Part shown: one piece after another, positions 6,001 to 38,466 of the stretch
How positions within the stretch are numbered: the first letter of the stretch is position 1
How the letters are laid out: every line of letters begins with the position of its first letter
Source: an uncultured Gammaproteobacteria bacterium
Lineage (GTDB): Bacteria; Pseudomonadota; Gammaproteobacteria; Magnimaribacterales; D2472
Length of the DNA stretch: 64,000 bases
Direction of reading: 5' to 3'
NCBI GenBank assembly: GCA_964417685.1
Contig: CAYQIT010000002.1
Span: 1,593-65,592, forward strand
The notes under the pieces: generated by a model
Told to the model about the DNA's origin: nothing
Database searches by the model: none
The model's input: the letters and a program-made list of their open reading frames with translations, nothing else
Made by a program: the position numbers and the translations under genes

Positions 6001-7075
6001 AACATTAGATCTTCTTTCTGAATTGCCTTTAAGTGAGTTATTTGCTGTAAGAACAGACAATGAGAACCTTAATACATCAATTGAGCAAACTGAGCAAACC
6101 TTTAAACAATATGTCAAAGGAATTAAAGAAAGATTTGAAGAAAAGAGAGAAAAAATCATACGAGGTCATGATTTAGCTCCAGGCGTTATAAAAATAGTAA
6201 AAGTATATTTAGCTATTAAAAGAAGAATACAGCCTGGTGATAAAATGGCTGGTCGTCATGGTAACAAAGGTGTTATTTCTGAGATCATGCCAGTAGAAGA
6301 TATGCCATATGATGAAAATGGTGATCCAGTAGATATTTGTCTAAATCCACTTGGTGTACCATCTCGAATGAATGTTGGTCAAATTCTAGAAACTCATATG
6401 GGATCAGCTGCTAAAGGTATTGGTAAGCAAATAGACTCAATGATTAAGGAAAATGCAAAACCAGCTGAACTTAAAACTTATCTTGAAAAACTATATAACA
6501 AAAATGCTGCTAATAAAGAAGATTTAGATGCATTTAATAACACAGAAATAGTTGAGTTAGCTAATAACTTAAGAGATGGTCTTCCGATAGCAACTCCAGT
6601 ATTTGATGGTGCAAAGGAATCAGAAGTTAAAGATCTTCTGAAATTAGCCAATCTTCCTGAATCAGGACAATTTACTTTATACGATGGTAGAACTGGAACT
6701 AAATTTGAAAGACCAGTAACCGTTGGATATATGTATATGATTAAGTTGAACCATTTAGTTGATGACAAAATGCATGCAAGGTCTACAGGATCATACAGTC
6801 TTGTAACCCAGCAACCTCTTGGAGGAAAAGCTCAATTTGGTGGACAAAGATTTGGAGAAATGGAGGTTTGGGCATTAGAAGCTTATGGAGCCTCATACAC
6901 ACTTCAAGAAATGCTTACAGTCAAATCAGATGATGTTTCAGGAAGAACAAAAATGTATAAAAACATTGTTGATGGTTCATTTGAGATGGATGCAAACATA
7001 CCAGAATCATTTAATGTTCTCAGTAAAGAGATTAAATCACTCGGCATTAATATTGAATTAGATTCAGAAAACTAG
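3014..7075 (+). CDS. rpoB: RNA polymerase beta subunit
   Basis: 1353 aa; [43 protein letters not shown]. Confidence 0.99.
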
Positions 7076-12192: not shown

Positions 12193-14295
12193 ATGGCTAG
12201 ACAAATTGTTTTAAATAAATATCGTAATGTTGGTATATGTGCTCACGTAGACGCGGGTAAAACTACAACTACAGAAAGAGTTCTATTTTATACAGGATTA
12301 TCTCACAAAATCGGTGAAGTTCACGATGGCGCTGCCACCATGGACTGGATGGAACAAGAGCAAGAAAGAGGTATTACCATTACATCTGCTGCAACTACAT
12401 GTTTTTGGAGTGGTATGGAGCAACAATTTCCTCAGCATAGAATAAACATTATTGATACTCCAGGCCACGTTGATTTTACAATTGAGGTAGAAAGATCATT
12501 GAGGGTGTTAGATGGCGCAGTTGTAGTATTTTGTGGGACATCTGGAGTTGAGCCGCAATCAGAAACTGTTTGGAGACAGGCTAATAGGTATGAAGTCCCA
12601 AGAGTGGTATTTGTTAACAAAATGGATAGAGCTGGTGCAAACTTTGAGAGAGTTGTTCAACAAATTAAAGACAGGCTACAAGCAAATATTGTTCCAATTC
12701 AATATAACATTGGTGCTGAAGATGACTTCAAAGGTGTTGTTGATCTAATAAATATGAGAGCAATATACTGGAATGAAGAAGATCAAGGTTTAACTTTCGA
12801 CTCCAAAGAAATTCCAGAAGATCTCCTAGATAAATGCACACAATTAAGAGAAGAAATGCTTGAAGCTGCTGCTGAAGCAAATGAAGAACTTATGGATGCT
12901 TATCTTGAGAGCGGTGATTTATCAGTAGAGCAAATAAAAGAAGGTTTAAGGATCAGGTCTTTAGCAAATGAGGTTATTGTTGGTTTATGCGGATCTGCTT
13001 TTAAGAATAAAGGTGTCCAAGCTATGCTTGATGCAGTAGTTGAATATTTGCCTGCGCCTGATGAAGTCAAAGCTATTAAAGGTGTAATACCAAACAACTC
13101 TCAAGAAGACGAAGAAGAAGATTCAAGAAAATCTTCCGATGATGAGCCCTTTTCAGCACTTGCTTTTAAAATCGCAACAGATCCATTTGTTGGAACTTTG
13201 ACTTTTATTAGAGTCTATTCAGGCGTGTTGTCAGTTGGTGATGCTGTAATCAATTCAACTAAATCTAAAAAAGAAAGAGTTGGGCGAATGGTTCAAATGC
13301 ATTCAAATAACAGAGAAGAAATCAAAGAAGTAAGAGCGGGGGATATTGCTGCATGTATTGGACTAAAAGATATTACCACTGGTGATACCTTATCAGATTC
13401 TAATAGCCCAATAGTATTAGAAAGAATGGATTTTCCTGAACCTGTCATATCTGTAGCAGTTGAGCCTAAATCAAAACCAGATCAAGAAAAAATGTCACTT
13501 GCGCTTGGAAAGTTAGCTCAAGAAGATCCTTCATTTAGAGTAGCAAGCGATGAAGAGTCTGGTCAAACCATCATATCTGGAATGGGAGAGCTCCACTTAG
13601 ACGTTCTGGTTGATAGAATGAGAAGAGAATTTTCTGTGGAGGCTAATATTGGTAAGCCACAAGTGGCATACAGAGAAACTATTAAAGAAACAGTTGAAGT
13701 TGAGGGTAAATTTGTTCGTCAAAGTGGTGGTAAAGGACAGTATGGTCATGTTTGGTTAAAGCTTGAACCATTAGGCTTAGACGATGAATACGAATTTGTA
13801 GACAAGATTGTAGGTGGAGTAATTCCAAAAGAATATATACCTGCTGTAAATAAAGGCATTCAAGAACAAATGCAAAATGGAGTTATTGCAGGTTATCCAT
13901 TGTTAGCTCTGAGAGCTACACTATATGATGGATCTTTTCATGATGTTGATTCTAATGAAATGGCATTCAAGATTGCGGGTTCAATGGCTTTAAAGGAAGG
14001 CGCTAACAAAGCAAAGCCTGCTTTGCTTGAGCCAGTAATGAAAGTTGTAGTTGTAACACCTGAAGAGCATATGGGTGATGTTGTAGGTGATCTCAATAGA
14101 AGAAGGGGAATAATATTAGGTATGGATGACATTACTTCTGGTAAAGAAGTTTCATCTGAAGTTCCTCTTGCAGAAATGTTTGGATATGCAACTGATTTAA
14201 GATCAGCAACCCAAGGTAGGGCAACTTTTACTATGGAATTTACTAAGTACGGTGAGGTCCCAAGTAATATAGCTGAGCAACTAAAAACCTCTTAA
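12193..14295 (+). CDS. fusA: Elongation factor G
   Basis: [27 protein letters not shown]-motifs; 700 aa. Confidence 0.99.
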
Positions 14296-14326
14296 AAATA
14301 TATAAAATAAAACTGCTTCATTTATA

Positions 14327-14360
14327 TTGACAGTTGGGTAATTAGAAGCTTAGAATACGC
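14327..14360 (+). promoter_or_regulatory. sigma70 promoter of S10 cluster
   Basis: TTGACA (14327-32), 18-nt spacer, TAGAAT (14351-56), then ACGC. Confidence 0.75.
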
Positions 14361-14423
14361 CACATTTTGCGATTTGCTTAATGTGAAAGAAAATTTTTAT
14401 AGGTATTAATTTAAAGGAAAAAA

Positions 14424-14735
14424 ATGGAGAACCAATCAATAAGAATAAGGCTTAAGGCTTTCGATTATAGACTGATTGATGCTTCAGCTAAATTAATAGT
14501 AGAAACAGTAAAAAAAACTGGAGCTGTTATTAATGGGCCTATTCCATTACCTGTTAAAAAGGAGAAAACAACAATCTTGAAATCTCCTCATAAAGATAAA
14601 GATGCAAGAGATCAATATGAGATTGTTACTTATAAAAGACTTATGGATATAGTCAAACCAACTGATAAAACAGTTGATGCTTTAATGAAATTAGATCTAT
14701 CTTCAGGGGTGGACGTTCAAATAAGCTTAGGCTAA
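14424..14735 (+). CDS. rpsJ: 30S ribosomal protein S10
   Basis: [29 protein letters not shown]. Confidence 0.99.
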
Positions 14736-14741
14736 TTCATT

Positions 14742-14783
14742 TATAACGCGAATGCGGCCATAGAGGGTTATAAGCCCCGTATA
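14742..14783 (+). ncRNA. Candidate structured cis-regulatory RNA (23S rRNA H18-H20-like) in rpsJ-rplC spacer
   Basis: Outer stem TATA(A)CG/CGTATA, inner hairpin GGGTT-ATA-AGCCC, GC-rich core TGCGGCCATAG in an otherwise AT-rich spacer; abuts the rplC SD (see finding). Confidence 0.6.
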
Positions 14784-14795
14784 TAGGAGAGAAAA

Positions 14796-15431
14796 TTGAG
14801 TTTAGGCTTAATAGGAAATAAATCTGGAATGTCTCGTCTTTTTCTTGAAGATGGAGAATCTGTTCCTGTTACCGCAGTATCTGTTTGCGGTAATTTTGTA
14901 GCTGATATCAAAACAACAGAAAAAGATGGTTATTCATCATTAGTTGTTTCAAAGACAAAGAAATCAAATAACGTAAATAAATCAAAGAGCGAGTTCTTCA
15001 AAAAGGTTAATCTAAATCCAGGTATTCTTGCAGAATTTAGGTGTGATTCAGATCAGGCTGAAGAATATGCTGTTGGTAAACATTTAACAGCTGATATGTT
15101 CAAAGTTGGTCAATATGTTGATGTTACAGGAACATCGAAAGGTAAAGGTTATGCCGGGGTCATTAAAAGACATAACTTTGCTATGCAAGACGCTACTCAT
15201 GGTAACTCACTATCTCATAGAGCTCACGGCTCAATTGGTCAATGTCAAACCCCAGGAAGAGTCTGGAAAGGTAAAAAGATGTCAGGCCATATGGGTAATG
15301 TGCAAAAAACTGTTCAGAACTTAAAAATAGTTGATTTAGATATTGAGAATAACATCATTTATATTAAAGGAGCAGTTCCAGGCTTCAATGGTGCAGACCT
15401 AAAAATTAAACCTTCGCTAAAAAGATCATGA
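14796..15431 (+). CDS. rplC: 50S ribosomal protein L3 (TTG start)
   Basis: [35 protein letters not shown]; SD AGGAGA. Confidence 0.99.
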
Positions 15432-16042
15432 AAATAGACTTATTATCAACAACAAAAAAACAGAACATAGATATATCTGATTCTGCTTTTGGAAGAGACT
15501 TTAATGAATCTCTTGTTCATCAGGCTGTTGTAAGCTACATGGCTGGTTCAAGACAGGGAACTTCTCAACAAAAGACTAGATCTGATGTTAGAGGTGGCGG
15601 TAAAAAACCTTATAGACAAAAGGGAACAGGAAGAGCTAGAGCAGGTACTATCAGAAGTCCACTTTGGAGAGGTGGTGGTGTAGCCTTTGCTTCTAGACCA
15701 AGAGACTATAGCAAGAAGATCAATAAGAAAATGTATAGAGCTGCTATAAGATCTATATTTTCTGAGTTACTTAGACAAGAGAAACTCGTTGCTATCGAAA
15801 ATCCTGTTTTAGACAAACCAAAAACAAAAGAAATAGCAAAATTTTTGAGTGAATTTTCATTAAGTAAGGTCCTAATTATTACTGATGAGATAGACATCAA
15901 TCTATTTTTATCTGTAAGAAATATTCCAAATGTAGATGTAATAACTGTGAGAGAGATCAATCCAGTTATTTTGCTCAAGGCTCAAAAAGTAGCAGTAACT
16001 GCCGAAGCATTTAAACAAATTGAGGAGTGGGTAGATGCATAA
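15428..16042 (+). CDS. rplD: 50S ribosomal protein L4
   Basis: [19 protein letters not shown]. Confidence 0.99.
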
Positions 16043-18845: not shown

Positions 18846-19052
18846 ATGAATAAAGAATTTGCTGAATTAAAAAACAAAAGCTCTAAAGAATTAGAAGCTG
18901 AGCTCATGGTTGCTAGAGAAGATCAGTTTACGCTGAAAATCAAACATAAAACTGGTCAATTGAATGAGACAAGTCAGCTTGGAGACGTAAAAAAGAAAAT
19001 AGCTAGGATTAAAACATTGATTAATGCTAATAAATTAAAGGATGAAAAATAA
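18846..19052 (+). CDS. rpmC: 50S ribosomal protein L29
   Basis: 68 aa, TGQL...KKKIARIKT; position between rplP and rpsQ. Confidence 0.95.
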
Positions 19053-19345
19053 TGGAAAATTCTAATCCAAGAATCTTGACAGGAGTTGTTACCAGTAACA
19101 AAGCTGATAAGACAATCACTGTTCAGATTGAAAGAAAAGTTAAGCATCCCTTGTATGGAAAGATTATTAAAAGATCAACTAAAGTCCATGCTCATGACGA
19201 AGAAAATAATGCATCAATAGGTGATGTTGTCACCGTTAAAGAATGTAAGCCTTTTTCTAAAACCAAAACATGGATTCTTGTTAATGATAATCAGGCTGAT
19301 AAATCTGAAACTGCAAAAGTTGCTGAAGTTGAGGAGAGTGAATAA
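19052..19345 (+). CDS. rpsQ: 30S ribosomal protein S17
   Basis: [26 protein letters not shown]; short acidic C-terminal tail. Confidence 0.98.
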
Positions 19346-19713
19346 TGATACAAATGCAATCACTTTTAAAAATCGCTGATAACAGCGGTGCTAGAAGCGT
19401 CATGTGTATAAAGGTTCTTGGCGGTTCAAAAAGAAGATACGCAAATATCGGCGACGTAATAAAAGTTGCTGTTAGAGAAGCTATCCCGACTGGAAAAGTT
19501 AAAAAAGGACAGGTTGTTGATGCGCTAATTGTAAGAACAAAAAAAGGCGTTAGAAGAAAAGATGGCTCTTTAATAAAATTTGATGAAAACGCAGCTGTTC
19601 TTATTAATAATCAGAAAGCTCCAATTGGAACGAGGGTGTTTGGGCCTGTTACAAGAGAATTAAGAGATGGCAAGCACATGAAAATATTGTCACTTGCCCC
19701 TGAGGTACTATAA
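19345..19713 (+). CDS. rplN: 50S ribosomal protein L14
   Basis: [21 protein letters not shown]. Confidence 0.99.
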
Positions 19714-19715
19714 AA

Positions 19716-20045
19716 ATGACAAATATTACTACTAAATTAAGAACTGGTGATGAGGTTGTTGTATTAGCCGGAAGAGATGTTGGTAAAACAGGAACTTTAA
19801 GAAAGATACTCAAATCTAAAAATAAAGGGATTGTTACAGGTGTAAATATGGTTAAAAAACATACCAAGCCAAATCCTGAAATGGGTGTCACTGGAGGAAT
19901 TGTTGAGCAAGAATCTTCCATTGATTTGTCTAATTTAGCAATCTGGAACTCTAAAACTAAGTTAAAAGATAAGATTGCTTATTCAGTTGATAAAGAAGGT
20001 AAAAAAATTAGATTATTCAAATCAAATAATAAAGAGATTAAATAA
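19716..20045 (+). CDS. rplX: 50S ribosomal protein L24
   Basis: KOW motif [16 protein letters not shown]; KKHTKP. Confidence 0.98.
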
Positions 20046-38117: not shown

Positions 38118-38466
38118 TGGTGGAGGCGGCGGGAATTGAACCCGCGTCCATTAATCCTTCAGCCTAACTTCTACATGCATAGCTCACCCAATTGGCTTTT
38201 TAACTTTATCGACCCGAGGAGCAGGGTGAAAAAGCGAGCTTGATTAAGTTTAACCAAACTGTGTCCAAGCAACACAGCTTGGCTAGACTATGTGTTTTGC
38301 CGATGCTTCAAACCATAGTCAATTCTTGCATCGGTTAGCATTAAGCTGCTAAAGCGTAGTTGTCGTTATTTGCAACTAAATTTTTTGTAGTATGTTTTAC
38401 AAGAATTACCACAATCTTGGCATGCGCTTCGGAGTCCAGTAGAAATGTCGAACCCTGTTCGCCCCC
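38118..38466 (-). ncRNA. ssrA: tmRNA
   Basis: 5' GGGGGCG pairs with 3' CGCCTCC-ACCA (G3.U70 alanine identity); T-arm GCGGG-TTCAATT-CCCGC; tag ORF 38373-38341 encodes ANNDNYALAA*; 20 nt downstream of smpB. Confidence 0.97.

Follow-up and report, generated by a model that had tools for sequence, protein, structure and literature searches.

Why should a short spacer between two ribosomal protein genes read like a piece of 23S rRNA, and what could such a copy do in an mRNA? The question is raised by a stretch of 64,000 nucleotides (referred to as the window) from a SAR86-cluster gammaproteobacterium of about 35% G+C, whose nearest uL3 proteins, up to 92% identical, come from SAR86 genomes throughout. 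Its genes run in the order fusA (12193-14295), rpsJ, a 60-nt spacer (14736-14795), rplC, rplD, rplW and rplB, with rplN and rplX further on. The gene for uS10, rpsJ (14424-14735, plus strand; Pfam Ribosomal_S10), lies 5' of the putative operator, while rplC (uL3; 14796-15431, plus strand; Pfam Ribosomal_L3) is the first gene under the proposed control. The proposed repressor and its possible co-ligand are encoded by rplD (uL4; 15428-16042, plus strand; Pfam Ribosomal_L4, 243 bits) and rplX (uL24; 19716-20045, plus strand; Pfam ribosomal_L24 and KOW), respectively. A first-pass annotation of this DNA had suggested that the spacer mimics helices H18-H20 of 23S rRNA and that free uL4 and/or uL24 binds it to repress rplC onward. 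Its description of the surroundings was accurate in that the spacer is 60 nt long, that rplC has a weak TTG start at 14796 and a Shine-Dalgarno sequence (AGGAGA, 14785-14790, plus strand, read from the sequence), and that rplD and rplX follow in the operon, as confirmed by Pfam for both. The 50-nt string it quoted is present at 14741-14790, and its start had been placed one nucleotide too far downstream, at 14742.

The rplD start overlaps the rplC stop (ATGA), and the cistrons 3' of rplC overlap or nearly abut. An open reading frame at 19052-19345 (presumably rpsQ) ends on the first base of rplN (19345-19713), so the S10 and spc gene strings are fused, leaving no space between them in which a separate spc promoter region could lie. 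At the other end of the operon, fusA is followed directly by rpsJ without a tuf gene in between, and the 128-nt gap carries a near-consensus promoter-like site (TTGACA-18-TAGAAT, 14327-14356, plus strand; 11/12 consensus matches in a consensus scan only). In the E. coli str operon, tufA comes after fusA. No terminator-like site was found in 14200-14900 and no rRNA gene in the 64-kb window, where a tmRNA gene (RF00023, 174 bits; 38118-38466, minus strand) is the sole Rfam family at gathering score.

To compare spacer and rRNA in both directions, one covariance model was built from rpsJ-rplC spacers only (the spacer model) and another from 23S fragments only (the 23S model; E. coli nt 295-343 plus 14 SAR86 23S variants). 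E. coli rrlH and SAR86 rRNA operons, located via the SAR86-1245 16S probe sequence, served as 23S references, with 74 SAR86 rRNA loci reaching into the 5' part of 23S. With both strands searched and filters off, the top match of the 23S model in the 64 kb was 14741-14784 (27.1 bits, E 4.8e-6), whereas the second-best match reached only 13.3 bits (E 0.13), leaving 14741-14784 as the sole significant one. The same interval, on the plus strand, was the sole hit of the spacer model (55.2 bits). Conversely, the spacer model found nt 295-343 of E. coli 23S exactly (rrlH locus positions 354-402; 38.6 bits, E 8e-10), as well as H18-H20 of SAR86 23S at up to 33 bits. Rfam rRNA models recognised related spacers too: LSU_rRNA_bacteria aligned the Gilvimarinus spacer to model positions 309-400 (35.2 bits, E 3.4e-7), and the archaeal LSU model matched that of Stutzerimonas. 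In none of these three comparisons had the site been chosen beforehand. The matches to 23S stop at the 44-49-nt junction, which is flanked by the rpsJ stop on one side and the rplC ribosome binding site on the other; no rRNA similarity past H18-H20 into the flanking helices was seen, and the posterior probability of the LSU alignment declines beyond the junction. Thus, the proposed likeness to 23S rRNA was recovered by model searches in both directions and by the Rfam LSU models, and the spacer is a specific mimic of 23S H18-H20.

Written in segments, the window spacer reads UUAUAA-CGC-GAAU-GCG-GCCAUAGA-GGGU-UAUAA-GCCC-CGUAUAU, as compared with GUGGAA-GCGUC-UGGAAA-GGCGC-GCGAUACA-GGGU-GACA-GCCC-CGUACAC for E. 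coli 23S nt 295-343 and GCAAAA-yAUwC-UGGAAA-G...-GCCAUAGU-AGGU-GAUA-GCCC-UGUAUGy for SAR86 23S. The element thus forms a mini three-way junction equivalent to H18/H19/H20, the helices of which were re-derived from homology and covariation. An H18-like outer stem, P1, is made of a 5' strand at 14742-14745 pairing with 14780-14783; A14746 (equivalent to A300) lies opposite G14779 (G338), which together with the 3' strand UAUA makes up 14779-14783 and is contained in the hits of both models. P2 (14747-14756) is a truncated H19 analogue, CGC-GAAU-GCG, with its stem at 14747-14749/14754-14756 and a GAAU loop. The junction strand GCCAUAGA (14757-14764; 23S nt 317-324) contains a lone pair, C14759-G14763, closing an AUA triloop, and leads into P3 (14765-14778), an H20 analogue with GGG/CCC pairing at 14765-67/14776-78 in the rRNA register and a loop of the form U-xxx-AGC; all of these features are on the plus strand. 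The folding sketched in the first-pass annotation was correct in outline and shifted in detail. The outer stem drawn at 14742-48/14778-83 is upheld as P1, some coordinates being off by 1-2 nt; the small hairpin placed at 14749-56 spans 14747-14756; and the five-base-pair hairpin of 14765-77 (14765-69/14773-77) is the thermodynamically preferred alternative, differing from the rRNA register.

The element does not track the rRNA of its own host exactly. Over the stretch from GGCCAUAG to GUAU, the spacer and SAR86 23S share 22 of 26 aligned positions, and a single base is inserted. The first-pass annotation had given a match of about 26 of 29; the resemblance itself holds, but it is slightly lower with SAR86 23S because the latter has A325-U337 where the mimic retains G325-C337 (window 14765/14778). 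This A325-U337 pair (AGGU...GCCCU), which is G-C in E. coli and in the bacterial consensus, represents a compensatory change in H20 of SAR86 23S. A closer copy of the E. coli sequence is carried by Pseudomonas, whose element reads GUGUAA-CGCUC-UGAAAU-GGGCG-GCCAUAGC-GGGU-GAAA-GCCC-CGUACAC, is 49 nt long and is gapless and collinear with E. coli nt 295-343 (23S model, 55.1 bits, E 5.6e-15). The Stutzerimonas spacer scored 55.1 bits as well, also gapless over 49 nt. The first-pass annotation had also named a similar spacer in Pseudomonas whose outer stem had undergone compensatory changes, and a pattern scan indeed found it.

That scan, restricted to one genome per species, returned at least 120 matches, and among the matches listed 117 of 120 were followed by a uL3 N-terminus, one was cut by the end of the locus and two were chance; the taxa include Pseudomonas, Stutzerimonas, Marinobacter, Cellvibrionaceae, Porticoccaceae, Spongiibacteraceae, Endozoicomonas and Marinobacterium. 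Among the 80 genomes nearest by uL3, 78 have the motif directly 5' of rplC (SAR86, Pseudohongiellaceae, Nitrincolaceae, Saccharospirillaceae, Halieaceae and others), and the spacer model gave exactly one match per locus in 100 loci (655 kb in total), always 5' of rplC. An extra sample of 82 loci was centred on an element-less lineage; Moraxellaceae and Halomonadaceae remained outside the direct survey. Forty-one of the 82 loci carry the element (Marinomonas, Microbulbifer, Amphritea, Motiliproteus, Marinospirillum and others). It was not found in the loci of this sample from OM182/Azotimanducaceae, Vibrio, Photobacterium, Aliivibrio, Pseudoalteromonas, Moritella, Aliidiomarina, Thioalkalivibrio, Woeseiaceae, Methylophaga, Thiotrichaceae and Berkiella. 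Overall, the element stands directly 5' of rplC in about 240 sampled genomes, including SAR86, Pseudomonas, Marinobacter, Cellvibrionaceae, Halieaceae and Marinomonas, and is absent from E. coli, Vibrionaceae, Alteromonadales-type genera, Chromatiales-type lineages and the OM182 clade. The median rpsJ-rplC spacer is 109 nt with the element versus 21 nt without it, and the 32-nt E. coli spacer gave no match to the models. The pattern of presence and absence, together with the short spacers where the element is lacking, therefore identifies it as a clade-specific insertion of SAR86 and the broadly defined Pseudomonadales. The streamlined genomes of SAR86 keep it at minimum size in a spacer of 60 nt.

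Two records outside the Gammaproteobacteria by name, 'Pontibacter sp. JAM-7' and 'uncultured Verrucomicrobiaceae', also carry the mimic next to a gammaproteobacterial-type uL3 (69-71% identical to the query), and are probably mislabelled or contaminated assemblies. Most non-SAR86 lineages possess in addition a GC-rich hairpin directly 5' of P1 that SAR86 is without; in Pseudomonas this hairpin (CUAAGAC-ucg-GUCUUAG) includes the stop codon of rpsJ. Since no U-run follows, the hairpin does not resemble a terminator.

If the junction is under selection as an RNA structure, its helices should be maintained across these taxa. In an alignment of 83 distinct elements, 94.0% of cells formed standard pairs, as compared with 84.4% in shuffled alignments (none of 500 reached the observed value) and 23-59% when the pairing partners were slid. 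A model-guided alignment of 100 elements agrees, and the ranges over both alignments are 94-96% for the observed pairs, 84-87% for shuffles and 21-60% for slid partners. In eight pairs both bases have changed, and every one of these pairs is in P1 or P2. Three of the five P1 pairs covary (GUGUA/UACAC, UUUUA/UAAAA, GUGCA/UGCAC and AUGUA/UACAU across taxa), and all pairs of P2 do so (CGC/GCG, UGC/GCA, CAC/GUG, CGAC/GUCG and CUAC/GUAG). The anticipated conservation and covariation in relatives are thus both present, the element being conserved across the whole order. By contrast, no covariation was detected in P3 and the junction, where positions are invariant, and the pairing there rests on rRNA homology.

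The distribution of invariant and variable positions is equally structured. GCC-AUAG in the junction strand, which is the same in the 23S of SAR86, shows little or no variation among the 83 distinct elements (A, 98%), with the last base alone varying. In P3, GGGU and AGCCCC are invariant, while the counterparts of nt 329-331 differ among elements in both identity and count. Mapped onto 23S, the invariant positions are A299, A300, G317-C319, U321-G323, G325-U328, A332-C337 and U339; they agree with the bacterial consensus except for G317, where the consensus has A but 23S of both E. coli and SAR86 has G. The length and loop of H19, nt 324 and the H20 loop nt 329-331 vary freely. P2 ranges from 3 base pairs to hairpins of about 60 nt: the H19-like arm consists of 3 base pairs and a tetraloop in SAR86, and it has grown to about 30-60 nt in Saccharospirillaceae, Halieaceae and some others with the junction unchanged. 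This arm appears to point away from the recognising partner. Such a pattern is what selection on the junction core as a recognition surface would produce.

Folding energy does not contribute to this support. Folded as a single sequence, the spacer of the window gave no significant result (z = -0.42) and no P1; the AU-only P1 of the window stays outside the minimum-free-energy fold, with -4.5 to -5.8 kcal/mol for the junction versus -8.1 kcal/mol for P2 and P3 alone, whereas in Pseudomonas the junction is the minimum-free-energy fold. RNAalifold on a plain MAFFT alignment recovered P3 only, in a register shifted by one, and a model-guided alignment, biased in favour of the model, was needed for P1 and P2 to emerge. 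The structural evidence therefore comes from homology and covariation. That the SAR86 junction is not the most stable fold fits with its closure needing a protein clamp.

The placement of the element points to the level at which it may act. The first-pass annotation had noted that the stem ends next to the rplC ribosome binding site, and this is general: the distance from the end of the element to the Shine-Dalgarno sequence is 0-1 nt in 53 SAR86 loci and has a median of 3 nt (range 0-9) in 143 other loci, with the rplC start codon 10-21 nt 3' of the element. This tight spacing points to translational control. The rplC start is TTG in the window and in 52/52 SAR86 loci (AAAUUGAGY), and ATG in all other lineages; a weak start codon beside the operator may sharpen competition with a repressor. 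An attenuator can be ruled out here, as there is no terminator.

Which protein could recognise such a junction is suggested by work on the rRNA itself. The H18/H19/H20 fragment of 23S rRNA (nt 281-359) specifically binds only uL4 and uL24, the affinity of uL4 being about 25-fold above that of uL24 with a cooperativity of about 6-fold, and each of the two proteins clamps a junction that has already formed (Geffroy et al. 2019, PMC6426284). This agrees with the ligands that had been named for the nt 295-343 region. In E. coli, uL4 autoregulates the S10 operon through a leader 5' of rpsJ (PMC3616713, PMC10931766), and this type of leader has been reported not to be conserved in Pseudomonas (PMC10931766). 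Mimicry, conservation, covariation, position and taxonomic distribution are observations, and we consider that they are best explained, with fair though not full confidence, by translational autorepression by uL4 through the junction mimic, possibly assisted by uL24; binding, repression and coupling are inferred. The element would act as an mRNA copy of the primary uL4/uL24 site, placed right in front of where ribosomes bind at rplC. Whenever more uL4 is made than free 23S rRNA can take up, the surplus would occupy this decoy junction, probably in cooperation with uL24, and clamp shut the weak P1, whose 3' strand runs up to the Shine-Dalgarno sequence. Access of the 30S subunit to rplC would then be blocked by the bound protein, and repression would be expected to spread by translational coupling to rplD, rplW, rplB and beyond, an expectation for which overlapping or nearly touching cistrons are the sole basis. 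Lying 5' of the site, rpsJ (S10/NusE) would escape repression, and the system would replace the E. coli-type S10-leader L4 attenuator in this order. All parts of the earlier interpretation that can be tested computationally are supported, while binding by uL4/uL24 and repression of rplC onward stay at the level of inference, without experimental evidence in any organism.

The same observations could belong to a larger and more speculative scheme, which we offer only tentatively and would not expect to hold in full. A captured rDNA fragment might now serve as a sensor of two proteins, responding only when uL4 (from the S10 operon) and uL24 (from the spc operon) bind it cooperatively, so that the output of both large ribosomal protein operons would be integrated at one intercistronic switch. 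It would then supply the long-missing S10 feedback in Pseudomonas and throughout the Pseudomonadales/SAR86 radiation, with an evolutionary origin separate from that of the L4 attenuator of enterobacteria.

Alternatively, uL24 rather than uL4 could be the ligand, with free uL24 repressing rplC onward from a gene about 4.9 kb downstream in the fused S10-spc string. Sequence alone cannot decide between the two proteins because all three junction strands are conserved. H18-H20 is the primary rRNA site of uL24, which makes more contacts and stabilises the fragment more strongly than uL4 (PMC6426284), and rplX belongs to the same tightly packed gene string, in which the open reading frame ending at 19345 overlaps the rplN start; against this, the affinity of uL24 for the isolated fragment is about 25-fold lower, and operators usually sit near the gene of their own regulator, which favours rplD as the second cistron after the site. 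We know of no precedent for uL24 as a regulator. Apart from its affinity and gene position, uL4 has a known regulatory role in the S10 operon and cross-links to nt 320-325, in the most conserved strand of the mimic. A switch run by uL24 is thus improbable in our judgement. As a ligand, uL3 was rejected: its rRNA site is not known to be H18-H20, and according to published work no proteins other than uL4 and uL24 bind the fragment.

Ranked lower again is a structured RNA without any feedback function, such as an RNase processing or stability element separating rpsJ from the distal operon, or a site for co-transcriptional loading of assembly proteins. A conserved and structured element would suit such a role, rpsJ (S10/NusE) may need to be expressed unlike the rest of the operon, and the GC-rich hairpin just 5' in many non-SAR86 lineages could be accommodated. 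However, it leaves unexplained why the uL4/uL24 core is copied base for base with free variation where rRNA makes other contacts, a terminator is absent, and the tight Shine-Dalgarno spacing speaks for translational control. Finally, a non-functional relic of an inserted rDNA fragment or a chance resemblance is scarcely credible and effectively refuted by the covariation. The gapless collinearity of Pseudomonas and 23S over 49 nt is compatible with rDNA copying, but one position is kept across SAR86 and many Pseudomonadales families, two helices compensate around invariant junction bases, streamlined SAR86 genomes keep the element in a spacer of only 60 nt, and chance expectation is far exceeded (E 4.8e-6 to 5.6e-15).

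Uptake of uL4 by the junction mimic, as the preferred reading has it, would bear on a textbook system, in that feedback by ribosomal proteins is known through RNA operators that come mainly from E. coli and have a narrow distribution. How the S10 operon is regulated in Pseudomonas was left unexplained in the sources we consulted, and the element is a concrete candidate that occurs in culturable Pseudomonas model species, Marinobacter and Marinomonas as well as in abundant uncultured marine SAR86. As an rRNA mimic it is unusually complete: the entire three-helix junction is reproduced, with the rRNA base at each invariant position, and the element offers a natural minimal substrate for studies of uL4/uL24 rRNA recognition and early 50S assembly. 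If the inferred regulation is correct, it also illustrates how the placement of an operator can leave S10/NusE outside ribosomal feedback.

No family in Rfam 15 matched the element; around the spacer nothing relevant appeared at E<=10, two weak lncRNA hits being noise, and six relatives scanned against Rfam gave only sub-threshold LSU rRNA matches and no dedicated family. The first-pass annotation had left open whether the element was catalogued, and no Rfam family covers it. A Pseudomonas rpsL leader (RF01773, 139.8 bits), which lies upstream of the rplC element in one of the Pseudomonas loci (6085-6220 of that locus, minus strand), is, unlike the element, catalogued. Targeted full-text literature searches, which did not cover several older key papers, returned no earlier description of the element, and we found no such switch described for Pseudomonas and its relatives.

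How, then, does the element compare with what is known? Its closest likeness is 23S H18-H20, the minimal uL4/uL24 fragment, with which it shares the segment-by-segment architecture and identical junction nucleotides to the point that models of either detect the other. It differs in sitting in an mRNA between non-rRNA flanks, in having H19 shortened in SAR86 and expanded in Halieaceae and others, and in letting the H19 loop UGGAAA, conserved in 23S, and the H20 loop nt 329-331 vary freely. With the E. coli S10 leader it has in common the operon, the presumed regulator uL4 and the principle of an mRNA competing with 23S domain I for free L4; as far as the account in PMC10931766 goes, a 23S fragment competes with the S10 leader (Stelzl et al. 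2003). However, the E. coli leader lies 5' of rpsJ, with its last hairpin overlapping the rpsJ start, a placement that the element, being 3' of rpsJ, does not meet; since the site lies between rpsJ and rplC, S10 would not be controlled by it. The E. coli leader is a multi-hairpin structure with a terminator and the element a compact three-way junction; the intrinsic terminator on which L4/NusA-dependent attenuation depends is lacking, and control would therefore be translational only. The first-pass annotation had likewise set the element apart from the S10 attenuator. Their distributions differ as well, the element being found in the broad Pseudomonadales and SAR86 and the E. coli-type leader in Enterobacterales, Vibrio and Haemophilus.

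An archaeal parallel in placement is the L4 r-leader candidate of Archaeoglobi, directly 5' of rplC-rplD, which its authors rate as uncertain (Eckert & Weinberg 2020, PMC7247131); it is in Rfam but gave no match here. The operators of uS8 (rplE, spc operon) and uS7 (rpsL-rpsG, str operon) are internal rRNA mimics through which one cistron is blocked directly and, by way of coupling, the genes distal to it as well (PMC10931766). Like them, the element is intercistronic and mimics the rRNA site of its presumed regulator, although protein, rRNA site and operon are different and the regulator gene lies downstream of the operator. Three properties expected of a ribosomal protein operator are present: a site in the mRNA by the ribosome binding site, resemblance to the rRNA site of a protein from the same operon, and a covarying structure. 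With protein binding and repression inferred, we class the element as a new operator family among the known rRNA-mimicking ribosomal protein operators, one that copies a whole three-helix junction instead of the single irregular helix mimicked by the uS8 and uS7 operators.
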